Shown in pieces: positions 3,788 through 36,501 of a stretch of 64,000 nucleotides of DNA. The translations under genes and the position numbers were made by a program. The number at the start of each line of letters is the position of its first letter. Position 1 is the stretch's first letter. Source of the stretch: Verrucomicrobiota bacterium (GTDB lineage Bacteria; Verrucomicrobiota; Verrucomicrobiia; Opitutales; Seribacteraceae); contig JAQBYT010000003.1 of assembly GCA_027622665.1 (NCBI GenBank), positions 64,001 through 128,000 of the forward strand, given 5' to 3'. The notes beneath the pieces were generated by a model that made no database searches, was not told the origin of the DNA, and was given only the letters and a program-made list of their open reading frames with translations.

Positions 3788-5253
3788 GGTGAAGATTGAC
3801 ATTCTTCCGGTTCATTCTCCCATGGCAAGGTTACGTTTACGGGAACGTGCTCCCAAGGTCGGAAGGGCTCGAAGATTTTTCCGGGGTTCAGGATGCCGTT
3901 CGGGTCGAGCGTTTTCTTGATCGCCTGCATGGTTTTCCACTCGGCGTCGTTGAACATGAGTCGCACGAATTCGGTCTTGGCCAACCCAATCCCGTGCTCG
4001 CCGCTTATGGCGCCGCCCAGTTCCACCACCTTGCGCATGAGCTCGCCCAAGGCGATGCGGGCTCGCTCCGCCTCGTCGGCATCCTCCCGGTCGTACATGA
4101 AGTTCACATGCAGGTTCCCGTCCCCGCAATGGCCGAAGGTGCCGATGCGCAAGTCGTGCTCCTCACGCAGGCCGTTCACGAAGGCGACGAGCTCAGCCTG
4201 TCGCTTCAGGGGCACCACCACATCCTCGTTCAGCTTGGTGTTGGCCAGCTTCTTCATTGCCTGCGAACCCTTTCGGCGCACCTCCCACAATTCCTCGGCC
4301 TCCTCCCCGTTCGCGGCCGCCTTGTGTGAAACCGCCGCCTCGGAAAACCATTGGAGGAGCTTGGCCGCATCCTCTTCCACTTGGGCGGGATGGCCATCCA
4401 GCTCCACCAGCAGCACGGGCAGTCCCGAAGTTCCCTCCAGCACGGTTTTGCCCGTGTAGCTCTCCACCCCGGAGACCGTCCATTGGTCCAGAAACTCCAG
4501 AATCGACGGCCGAATTCCCAGCCTACCCAAGGCGAAAGGCCCCTGCAGGGCTTCCTCCTCCGAAGCGAAAGCCGCCAAAAAGGTACGGGAAACAGCCGGT
4601 TTCGGAACCAGTCTCAGGGTGACCTCGGTGATCACTCCCAGCGTACCCTCGCTCCCGATCCACAGATCACGCAAATTGTAGCCCGTGGCGAACTTGCGGG
4701 TCGCCCTGCCCCACTTTACCTTCTCTCCCGTGGGCAGGAAACCGCCGAGGGCCAGCACGTAGTCGCGGGTCACCCCGTACTTTACGCACCGCAGCCCGCC
4801 CGCATTGCAGGCAACGTTGCCCCCGATCGTGCAAAACTTCTTCGACGAGGGATCGGGCGGATAAAACAGCCCCACCTCCTCCGTCGCCTTTTGGATATCC
4901 GCCACCACCGCTCCCGGTTGGGCCACGCACACGCGCTCGTCCTCGTCTATGGAAAAATCGTTCATCGCCGAGAGGTCCAGCACCCAACCACCATGGATGG
5001 GGGCCGCACTCCCCGTGAGGGACGAACCCACGCCGCGCGTGGTAACAGGAATCGCAAACTCGTTCGCCAACCGAAGCAGCTCGCCCACCTGGGGATCCTC
5101 GGTAGGTTTCACCAAGGCCTCCGGAGTAAAGCTCACCTTCATCGCATCGTAGGAAACCCGACGGAGATCCTCCACCTCGGTGGAGGTCACCTCACCTAGG
5201 CTCCCCAGCAAAGCGGCCAAGCCCATGTCTGCGTTCTCATTCTCTTTCGTCAT
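3784..5253 (-). CDS. FAD-linked oxidase, GlcD/D-lactate dehydrogenase family
   Basis: Motifs FYPPDPSS, TIGGNVACNAGG, VKYGVTRDY, GSEGTLG, GHCGDGNLH, SGEHGIG and DPNGILNPGK. Confidence 0.9.
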   Translation of the reverse strand: MTKENENADMGLAALLGSLGEVTSTEVEDLRRVSYDAMKVSFTPEALVKPTEDPQVGELLRLANEFAIPVTTRGVGSSLTGSAAPIHGGWVLDLSAMNDFSIDEDERVCVAQPGAVVADIQKATEEVGLFYPPDPSSKKFCTIGGNVACNAGGLRCVKYGVTRDYVLALGGFLPTGEKVKWGRATRKFATGYNLRDLWIGSEGTLGVITEVTLRLVPKPAVSRTFLAAFASEEEALQGPFALGRLGIRPSILEFLDQWTVSGVESYTGKTVLEGTSGLPVLLVELDGHPAQVEEDAAKLLQWFSEAAVSHKAAANGEEAEELWEVRRKGSQAMKKLANTKLNEDVVVPLKRQAELVAFVNGLREEHDLRIGTFGHCGDGNLHVNFMYDREDADEAERARIALGELMRKVVELGGAISGEHGIGLAKTEFVRLMFNDAEWKTMQAIKKTLDPNGILNPGKIFEPFRPWEHVPVNVTLPWENEPEECQSSP

Positions 5254-5388
5254 CTCTTATTCTTGTAGCCACGACGATCGGCAGTAGGCAAAGCAAAAGC
5301 TTTCAGCCGCTCTTGCCATCAGAAGGAACAACCCTCCCCTAACGATGTCCTTGCGAGCCGCAACATAGCGCGGTCATCCCACACACTT

Positions 5389-5519
5389 TTGTCATTGCGA
5401 GCCCGTCAGGGCGTGGCAATCCAGTCCGGATCGTTATACGGGATGCCCGGGCGATGCGGGATGCCCTACGCGGCCGCTGGATTGCCGCGTCGGGGCTCTG
5501 CCCCTCCTCGCAATGACAA
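5389..5519. repeat. Nested palindromic repeat element (REP/RPE/MITE-like)
   Basis: Perfect 13-bp terminal inverted repeat TTGTCATTGCGAG (5389-5401) / CTCGCAATGACAA (5507-5519). Inner inverted repeat CGTGGCAATCCAG / CTGGATTGCCGCG with one mismatch. Internal direct repeat CGGGATGCCC, two copies. Confidence 0.85.
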
Positions 5520-5616
5520 CACAAAAAAAACTGGCTCCGATTGAAGTAATCGTCTCCCGGGCAGTCGCTCGTTTCAATCCTTGAACAAACCACAAATTCC
5601 TTTTTATAACCCGCGG

Positions 5617-5645
5617 TTGACATCATGCGCGTAATTGCGTACGCT
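5617..5645 (+). promoter_or_regulatory. Sigma70-type promoter of the toxin-antitoxin operon, with a palindrome over the -10 box
   Basis: TTGACA-17 nt-TACGCT. The palindrome GCGTACGC (5637-5644) overlaps the -10 box, and the ATG follows 7 nt later. Confidence 0.75.
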
Positions 5646-5652
5646 TTGAATC

Positions 5653-5895
5653 ATGACAACGATCACTGCCACTCAGGCTCGGCAAAAACTTTATTCCTTG
5701 ATCGACGAGACTAACGATTCCCATCAACCCATCCAGATTACTGGGAAGCGGGCCAATGCCGTCTTGCTTTCGGAGAGTGATTGGCGAGCGATACAGGAAA
5801 CTCTTCATTTGCAATCGGTTCCCAGATTAGTCGATTCCATACAGGAGGCGAGACAGGAAGGAATCGAGCAAGCGAGTGAAGAACTCGACTGGTGA
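5653..5895 (+). CDS. yefM: Phd/YefM family antitoxin
   Basis: MTTITATQARQKLYSLID...PIQITGKRANAVLLSESDWRAIQETLHL; overlaps the toxin start. Confidence 0.92.
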   Translation: MTTITATQARQKLYSLIDETNDSHQPIQITGKRANAVLLSESDWRAIQETLHLQSVPRLVDSIQEARQEGIEQASEELDW

Positions 5896-34276: not shown

Positions 34277-34352
34277 GCCACCTTAGCTCAGTTGGTAGAG
34301 CAGGGGTTTTGTAAACCTCAGGTCGTCGGTTCGAGTCCGACAGGTGGCTCCA
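34277..34352 (+). tRNA. tRNA-Thr(TGT)
   Basis: 76-nt cloverleaf GCCACC...GGTGGC-T-CCA with anticodon loop TTTGTAA and a GTTCGAGTC T-loop. Confidence 0.97.
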
Positions 34353-34358
34353 TCTTCA

Positions 34359-34448
34359 GGAAGGGTGGCAGAGTGGTCTAATGCGGCGGTCTTGAAAACC
34401 GCTGAGCCGGAAACGGTTCCGGGGGTTCGAATCCCTCCCCTTCCGCCA
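34359..34448 (+). tRNA. tRNA-Ser(TGA)
   Basis: 90 nt, acceptor stem GGAAGGG/CCCTTCC, anticodon loop CTTGAAA, long variable arm and encoded CCA. Confidence 0.97.
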
Positions 34449-34795: not shown

Positions 34796-34936
34796 CTACT
34801 GGCTGGTCGGTCGGAGACTGAGGCGGAAGCCCAGGAAGTTGATGCTGAAGGCGGGCCCGTCCCTGCTCCGATCCGCGGAACGGGCGGAGTACGCCGAGAA
34901 GTACCAGGAACCACCGCGTAAGACGCGGATGGAGCC
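34796..34936 (-). other. Putative DGR variable region (VR)
   Basis: Codons for conserved residues are adenine-free, and the interspersed variable codons are mostly NNC, consistent with A-to-N mutagenesis of AAC. Confidence 0.65.
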
Positions 34937-35749
34937 ATCCGCAGGACCGACAGGATCACGCACTGCACCGGCCGGGTAATCGCCATACCAGTCCGCGCAC
35001 CATTCCCATACGTTGCCATGCATGTCGTGGAAGCCCCAAGCGTTCGCAGGATACTTGCCCACGTCCGTGGTCTCGTCGGGACGAGCAAGACTTGCGTTAA
35101 TATTCGCCTGTCCGGAAGTCAGGCTGTCTCCGAAAGTATAAGCCGTCTTAGTTTCTGCTCGGCAGGCATACTCCCACTGGGCCTCCGTGGGCAGTTGGTA
35201 AGACATCCCCGAAGGTAGGCGTCCCGCCTTGCGCTCCAGCTCAGTGAGCTTCTCACAAAAAGACGTTACCGCCGTCCAAGACACTCTCTCCACGGGGCGA
35301 TCCGCTCCATTGAAATGACTGGGGTTACTTCCCATCACCTTCTCCCACTCCGACTGAGTCACCTCGTGTTTGCCGAGGTAGAAACCTTGCGACAGCGTCA
35401 CAGTATGCGGGGTTTCGTCGTCCGCACGATTCTTCTCGGACGACCGACTACCCATCTCGAAAGTTCCCGGCTTCACCCACAGCATCTCCATGGACAGATC
35501 GGCTATGACGAAAGATGCGTTGGCCTCGAAGACCGATGTGGAAAGGTTCACAGGCGCGGGCGAAACCTTCTTGGGAGGTGTACGAGGTTTCGGACGAGGA
35601 GTTTCAGGGGCGGGAGCAGGCGAGGGTTCTCGAGAAGGTCCGGGGGCGGAAGTCGCCGTATCATCCTCCACGACTTTCGTAGTTTCTTCATCCTCCCCAC
35701 ACCCCGCCATCAGCAGGGCGACGAACATCGTAACAAGTAACTTCTTCAT
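34796..35749 (-). CDS. FGE-sulfatase/SUMF1-like (C-type lectin fold) lipoprotein, non-catalytic; candidate DGR target
   Basis: Lipobox MAGC, Pro-rich linker and motifs GTFEMGS, HEVTQ, LPTEAQWEYACRA, DMHGNVWEWC and RGGSW...LGFRL. The catalytic Cys pair of true FGE is absent. Confidence 0.92.
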   Translation of the reverse strand: MKKLLVTMFVALLMAGCGEDEETTKVVEDDTATSAPGPSREPSPAPAPETPRPKPRTPPKKVSPAPVNLSTSVFEANASFVIADLSMEMLWVKPGTFEMGSRSSEKNRADDETPHTVTLSQGFYLGKHEVTQSEWEKVMGSNPSHFNGADRPVERVSWTAVTSFCEKLTELERKAGRLPSGMSYQLPTEAQWEYACRAETKTAYTFGDSLTSGQANINASLARPDETTDVGKYPANAWGFHDMHGNVWEWCADWYGDYPAGAVRDPVGPADGSIRVLRGGSWYFSAYSARSADRSRDGPAFSINFLGFRLSLRPTSQ

Positions 35750-35931: not shown

Positions 35932-36408
35932 CTAAAGTCGACCCGGAGGTTCTGCCGGGGTTTCCGGTTCTGGCGGGGTTTCCGGTTCTGGCGGGGTTTC
36001 CGGTTCTGGCGGGGTTTCCGGCGGGGGTTCGGTTCCGCCTCGTCCGTGGAATTCGTCTATTTGGTCGGTTTCGGCAAATCGGTTGAATGATGCCCGCTCC
36101 AAGGGTTGAGAGAATTTGAGAAGTAATTCCTCGTTTTCCCTGTCTAGATAAAAAATCTGGAGGAGTTTGGAGTGGGACTCGTTGACGAGCTTCTTGGAGT
36201 CGTCGAAGGGGGAGAACAATTCGGGCTGCAGGCGCTTGAGGTTACTGAGGGACTCGTCGAGCTTGGGCAGGAGGGCTTTCTTACGTTCTATCAAGCTGTC
36301 ATCGGGAGCGGTCTTTTGGGTCTTGAGCCAAGTGTTTTCCTCAAGCAGCAGGGCGTGAACATCTTCACAAAGGCCAAGGTGTCGGACCAGTACATCGCAA
36401 GGTTCCAT
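35932..36408 (-). CDS. FlgN-like helical flagellar chaperone candidate with a Pro/Glu repeat tail
   Basis: About 100-aa helical domain (LLLEEN..L, ERKKALL..L, LDRENEELLL) resembling FlgN, followed by a (PPEPET)n tail. Confidence 0.55.
   Translation of the reverse strand: MEPCDVLVRHLGLCEDVHALLLEENTWLKTQKTAPDDSLIERKKALLPKLDESLSNLKRLQPELFSPFDDSKKLVNESHSKLLQIFYLDRENEELLLKFSQPLERASFNRFAETDQIDEFHGRGGTEPPPETPPEPETPPEPETPPEPETPAEPPGRL
35948..36021. repeat. 18-bp tandem repeat GGTTCTGGCGGGGTTTCC x4 (encodes PEPETP)
   Basis: Four copies, one with a single mismatch. Confidence 0.95.
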
Positions 36409-36501
36409 TCCCAAATGGTGGCGAAACGGTAACGAACCGTCAAAGCTAGAATTTCGGGATTGGGAAAAACAATCAAAGCTTGGCGGGGACAGGCGGACGG
36501 T

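Follow-up and report, generated by a model that had tools for sequence, protein, structure and literature searches.

The DGR of Treponema denticola has an HRDC accessory gene and up to seven non-adjacent targets with lipoprotein signals, and leftover targets occur in strains without its core cassette, according to the passages of PMC5758913 and PMC4891356 that treat it. Clade 5 DGRs, as portrayed in the relevant part of PMC10907252, show trans activity and have few planktonic hosts; in the same account, those of Thiohalocapsa PB-PSB1 comprise many RTs, with conflict-system targets and multicellular hosts. The RT-anchored survey of Roux et al. misses remote targets, by its own statement in the part that deals with them (PMC8144416), and its DGR tables could list the RTs discussed below without naming them. 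A literature search that left subscription journals and supplements outside its reach found no paper on DGRs in Opitutales, and Verrucomicrobia go unmentioned in PMC11661182.

Here we describe a probable target of such a system in a marine or estuarine Opitutales lineage. It lies in a window of 64,000 nucleotides (the whole stretch of DNA that was analysed), and it is predicted to encode a binding protein anchored in the membrane (Table 1). The mechanism is already known and the system is of the same kind as the T. denticola HRDC-type DGR; it is new in marine Opitutales. Common to both, as the latter is described in PMC5758913 and PMC4891356, are FGE-type CLec lipoprotein targets with a C-terminal variable region, or VR (TvpA 2y3c; Architecture C of Wu et al., PMC5758913), an HRDC accessory gene (here in sister cassettes), more than one remote target, and targets that occur in genomes lacking the core cassette (PMC4891356). 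The gene order differs, being target-HRDC-RT-template in the sister genera, whereas the T. denticola-type Architecture C is drawn in that part of PMC5758913 with HRDC between template and RT. Unlike in T. denticola, an oral spirochaete, tandem multi-CLec proteins are among the targets here, and one template scaffold is common to species about 88% identical in flanking DNA.

The Legionella LdtA DGR reportedly has a surface lipoprotein as its target. Like the present system it is a chromosomal DGR that diversifies a lipoprotein CLec domain; it differs in its Avd and MSL genes, described in the pertinent part of PMC5758913, of which none were found here. The Thiohalocapsa PB-PSB1 DGRs resemble the present system in having CLec targets, some of them best explained by trans activity in the portion of PMC10907252 that covers them. 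In contrast, there is apparently one cassette per genus here, and the targets are predicted to be lipoproteins or secreted proteins. A Treponema-like hypervariable lipoprotein family is now placed in a marine bacterium, offering a concrete system for asking what cellular DGR targets bind, be it phage, prey, polysaccharide or partner cells.

Table 1. Features of the target locus, in coordinates of the window
Feature	Position	Strand	Basis
DGR target gene, 317 aa predicted lipoprotein	34796..35749	(-)	ORF
Predicted lipoprotein signal peptide ending in Cys17	35699..35749	(-)	By-eye reading: two Lys, hydrophobic run, MAG followed by C
Pro/Thr/Glu-rich linker	35525..35698	(-)	Sequence
FGE-sulfatase-type CLec domain, aa 88-310	34820..35488	(-)	PF03781, E 1.1e-49
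Variable region, 125 nt, 33 template adenines, 18 variable codons	34818..34942	(-)	Alignment of template contig
IMH-like 3' end common to VR and template	34818..34834	(-)	Loose alignment end behind L005:1643
Conserved GA-rich non-coding element after stop codon	34716..34795	(-)	Conservation among copies

The target gene and its surroundings

The target gene is located at 98.8 kb of a contig of 227 kb (C47). It is at least 98 kb from either contig end and the contig is without RT or template, so that any cassette in cis would be at least 98 kb away. The leader of the protein is common to the paralogs, and the linker region has a weak, sub-threshold match to a PARP repeat (aa 14-61). Both the PF03781 match and the match to T. 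denticola TvpA (2y3c, E 8.4e-32, the best of 24 PDB matches) place the VR at the C-terminus of the CLec domain. An AlphaFold model of the protein has a mean pLDDT of 64, with values below 50 in the VR. The same Pfam domain occurs in formylglycine-generating enzyme (SUMF1), the name that homologs carry in the databases. This identity was rejected because the window protein has no cysteine after RGGS, in the sequence and in the PDB alignment; we take the position after this motif to be that of the catalytic cysteine pair of the enzyme, and in the window protein it is hypervariable.

At 35085-35098 the window protein is three residues longer than P0127 and P0268, and metagenome runs X2, X3 and X5 carry the short form; the extra residues are either a strain allele or an assembly error. 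Genes for tRNA-Thr and tRNA-Ser (34277-34448) lie 350 nt downstream of the target gene and are convergent to it, and a short tandem repeat of PPEPET units (35950-36040) is found at the end of ORF 35932-36414. Several congeners (L064, L065 and L067) have a target at the corresponding position, therefore the gene is not a recent insertion.

The element that follows the stop codon is 82-92% identical at six other places in the genome, with a mean column identity of 83% over 23 copies, and is a candidate target-recognition signal. A hairpin or cruciform directly 3' of the VR is a DGR target feature according to the part of PMC3240598 concerned with it. The fold of the element is not significant here (z -0.82, covariation term -0.14), and the sister-genus element folds at z -3.54. 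Foreign DNA interrupts the element in L010, L014, L023, L027, L040 and L061. Two target copies of the genome that holds the window (G000) are also split (C52:8597-11872 and C30:59612-63080); the inserted DNA is unique and measures 2.4 kb in the first and 3.3 kb in the second, where it adjoins tRNA-like sequence. All these interruptions represent either insertion hot spots or misjoins.

Adenine pattern of the variable region

The codons quoted in the preliminary description are present at the end of the minus-strand ORF 34796-35749, and the scaffold codons that it lists are free of adenine. The pattern is real and exceeds chance. Its interval (34796..34936) needs amending: the span homologous to the template is 34818-34942, slightly 5' of the one proposed. 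From 49 VR-like rows we kept 40 distinct copies with the family 3' end, dropping nine that included sister VRs and templates. Their alignment has 126 columns, of which 33 vary, 31 of these at codon positions 1-2. All 33 have adenine in at least 10% of the copies, and the other 93 columns are conserved, with C, G or T in 91 of them. Variation in this genus-wide family is located at template-adenine sites, the restriction that had been expected of paralog differences. The 33 adenine sites of the 125-nt span were set by hand, with two marginal columns replaced after the template contigs had been aligned.

The encoded residues follow the same rule. Lysine, glutamate, glutamine, methionine and tryptophan, which are out of reach from AAC or AAT through adenine changes, occupy five of 1020 such VR sites in 85 homologous proteins, compared with 22.4% in the domain body. 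In the same proteins, 1500 of 1530 variable residues can be reached from the template through adenine changes (65% expected), using a template that was inferred from overlapping data and later checked on metagenome contigs.

Template, cassettes and dispersed targets

Most of the locus is present in 14 DNA runs from five studies, one of which (X1) may be its source. Contigs of runs X4, X6, X7 and X9 were aligned to L005, the natural VR richest in adenine. Three of these contigs, measuring 2072, 1310 and 813 nt (X4, X7 and X9, from three studies), align solely over L005:1519-1643, with unrelated flanks, and each differs from L005 in this span by exactly 11 letters; L005 itself has exactly 11 non-A letters at inferred template sites. 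The same template flank is also found in X6. Five X9 contigs cover the core, and the letters of the template rest on this match in the count of 11 letters together with the X9 depth sums. By these sums the 5.79x contig has adenine at 8 of the 11 sites, two sites lie outside the listed rows and one is ambiguous. Translation of the metagenome template agrees with that of the template proposed earlier from the window alone. Compared with it, the window VR has 19 of 33 adenines substituted; among the 92 sites that are not adenine it has a single difference, which is silent and lies at the 5' edge. As judged from these alignments, the window carries a true DGR variable region whose template occurs in seawater metagenomes that also contain the gene.

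Over the 30 letters read on each side, the 5' flank of the template resembles the spacer ahead of sister templates, and the 3' flank diverges right after the common end, as IMH* would. VR and template part immediately after this IMH-like end, with a similar divergence in sister cassettes, and we infer an IMH role for 34818..34834. The X4 contig has 1637 nt upstream of the template and the distance from VR end to template is 1667-1808 nt in five sister cassettes, so that there would be just enough room for HRDC and RT ahead of the common repeat. The sequence of RT P0036 continues into a template that is closely related to this one (29 of 41 residues, read in a shifted frame), showing that RTs of its group do accompany this template type. 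The template motif had no match in 401 genomes of the order, and the template flank motifs had none in viral contigs. Among the matches listed for a degenerate VR/template pattern, 24 metagenome stretches, nine genome stretches and one viral stretch are all VRs.

The genome that holds the window has 4.5 Mb in 66 contigs and is 93.5% complete. It contains four complete VRs of this scaffold (the window, C11, C47 at 226 kb, and C52) and VR fragments on C4, C30, C52 and C64, most of them followed by the same 80-nt non-coding element. The term stand-alone, used in the preliminary description, holds for the locus and not for the genome, which has at least three more VR copies and four contig ends (of 132) within such genes; the dispersed paralogous targets that it envisaged are present in this genome and in the genus. 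An aged VR at C47:226.6 kb and another at L060:1507 lie in differing contexts but have similar alleles, rich in non-A changes, possibly a domesticated, selected variant.

The absence of a DGR RT, Avd or template noted for the window extends to the whole assembly. BLASTn with word size 7 against this genome matched the paralogous VRs and found no template, nor did a scan of its AAC density, and a bAvd search of it was negative, although the accessory that matters for this kind of DGR is HRDC. Its HRDC search gave one weak partial match (E about 1e-6 over 65 aa) and no convincing accessory gene. The sole RT of the genome (L001, C65:26900-28200) was rejected as a DGR RT, as its frame is broken, its best match is the group II intron RT TIGR04416 and sister DGR RTs do not match it.

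The VR was matched in 10 of 41 genomes, namely the genome of the window, six of eight congeners and three other family members, and was not found in 16 genomes of other families. Nine records that carry the same VRs have a title, which names Opitutales or Opitutia in eight cases and Planctomycetota in one, in keeping with the Verrucomicrobiota-like host that had been suggested. An RT search matched 19 of 76 family genomes. In seven of 75 family relatives (2/20 in genus g3, 5/44 in genus g5 and 0/9 in this genus) a DGR RT is preceded by an HRDC gene and, where the contig reaches that far, followed by a template. Between these sister templates and the window VR there are 24-30 differences at about 90 non-A sites, which excludes them as its template.

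The sister cassettes also display the organisation of one template and many targets that had been put forward for the window. Targets that lie away from the cassette contig in G069 and G012 have 0 of 82-83 non-A differences to the local template, so that the family offers a direct view of a single template with targets not adjacent to it. Two targets at G087:C17 have 12 and 15 of 84 non-A differences. Four matches in G002 held three further target-like copies, without a template. With a sister RT as query none of 10 genomes matched, and P0038 had 14 matches in 401 genomes of the order, none in this genus. The candidate RTs P0033-P0042, most of which lie on short contigs, reach 54-60% against the sister RT and showed no tie to the template found here. 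RTs present in G004, G007, G011 and G013 were discarded, as by eye they resemble the retrotransposon or retron type. The two retrotransposon-like RTs at L032 and L036 in G004 are probably eukaryotic contamination of that bin.

Competing explanations and signs of activity

We consider it likely that the window gene is a remote target of an HRDC-type DGR whose cassette, of roughly 2 kb, is present in the population, remains unbinned and probably escaped inclusion in this bin. Following established DGR biology, the RT and the HRDC accessory protein would reverse-transcribe the template RNA with errors at adenines, and the cDNA would replace the VR of any gene ending in the common IMH and 3' element. 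Up to 18 residues of the predicted CLec binding site would be re-randomised in this way in several dispersed and tandem genes. By inference, RT and HRDC would sit on the template contig, this strain would have the cassette and the product would be displayed at the surface.

Alternatively, this strain could be without the cassette and the gene an orphan target. RT and template flank are absent from all nine genomes of the genus, four of which are at least 90% complete. In g5, VRs are found in 21 of 44 genomes and 16 of those 21 have no RT; RT-less bins are the rule in the family. Strain-level gain and loss in T. denticola, described in the relevant part of PMC4891356, would be a precedent, and two of the four complete VRs in the genome of the window are aged, with 10 and 12 non-A differences. 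Moreover, the window VR allele is repeated identically in L052, P0127 and P0268, and nine runs hold 0.91-0.97 of the words of the locus, which suggests that the dominant allele is stable. Among the aligned VR pieces listed, with 666 more beyond the listing, those free of differences occur in no run other than X1, which has no bearing on allele frequencies. On the other side, the template has a depth of 102.5 in X4, close to the single-copy depth of 83-107 for window-specific contigs in X5 from the same sample (S4), a comparison between different runs to which congeners may contribute, as these could share template-bearing samples. The single non-A difference of the window VR is silent, and P0269 presents a fresh allele on the same gene body. 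In addition, the smallest contig in the bin measures 3566 nt, and the template is likely absent because its contig of about 2 kb is shorter than any in the bin. We therefore hold an orphan target to be unlikely and retain the remote target with an unbinned cassette. The cassette is in none of nine genome bins, yet its template is predictable from the VRs and recoverable from unbinned contigs, which reveals both a blind spot and its remedy.

The alleles themselves tell something of the timing. P0269 and P0127 are identical at 189 of 190 residues of the gene body and differ at 14 of 18 variable codons and at none of 24 scaffold residues, and several further pairs of this kind exist. Such change around an intact scaffold in a near-identical gene copy points to recent diversification. 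P0269 has a further difference, a single residue 3' of where the template stops, and paralog recombination or an assembly chimera could therefore explain this copy. This additional change, the long flanks that paralogs have in common, and the interrupted and recombined copies at C52 and C30 would agree with an ancient VR diversity that homologous recombination or gene conversion now merely redistributes among paralogs, retrohoming having ceased. We find this very improbable, since 87 of 88 VR protein sequences of this type (among 120 listed homologs) are distinct and an intact template persists in three studies. Silent sites also argue against it: four-fold sites are 46.7% divergent in gene bodies and 10.8% in the VR scaffold, and adenine sites 64.6%, in all pairs of 35 copies, which are hence not independent.

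L066:1574-3440 (G002:C22) contains three consecutive VRs of differing template types. One of them has no non-A difference to the template of this genus, stops at its 3' boundary and continues into a sister-type tail, which suggests template replacement. The tract ends at the template boundary and not in paralog homology, and this fits cDNA replacement better than gene conversion.

That a phage or other mobile element carries the cassette, visits the population and edits host genes is hardly credible: one IMG/VR contig (L070) has a target of this type and the cassette is absent from every bin of the genus, but neither a template nor a close RT was found in viral contigs (identity of 47% at best), chromosome-like contigs of up to 331 kb carry the sister cassettes, and remote targets are reported almost solely for non-phage DGRs in the part of PMC5758913 that addresses them. 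The L070 target (4923-5852) adjoins an ORF of at least 1357 aa, and the contig is either a prophage edge or host DNA.

A broader view built on the remote-target explanation is tentative, and we lean against it somewhat. One small cassette, with a template almost constant across species, would rewrite dispersed lipoprotein and tandem-CLec genes (about 2e18 sequences each) into a genus-wide antibody-like repertoire and could capture the targets of an older template. Being systematically invisible in bins, remote-target DGRs would then be much commoner in the ocean than RT-anchored surveys show. In another family of the order, more DGR templates lie beside related RTs at L135 and L137 (G320 and G355).
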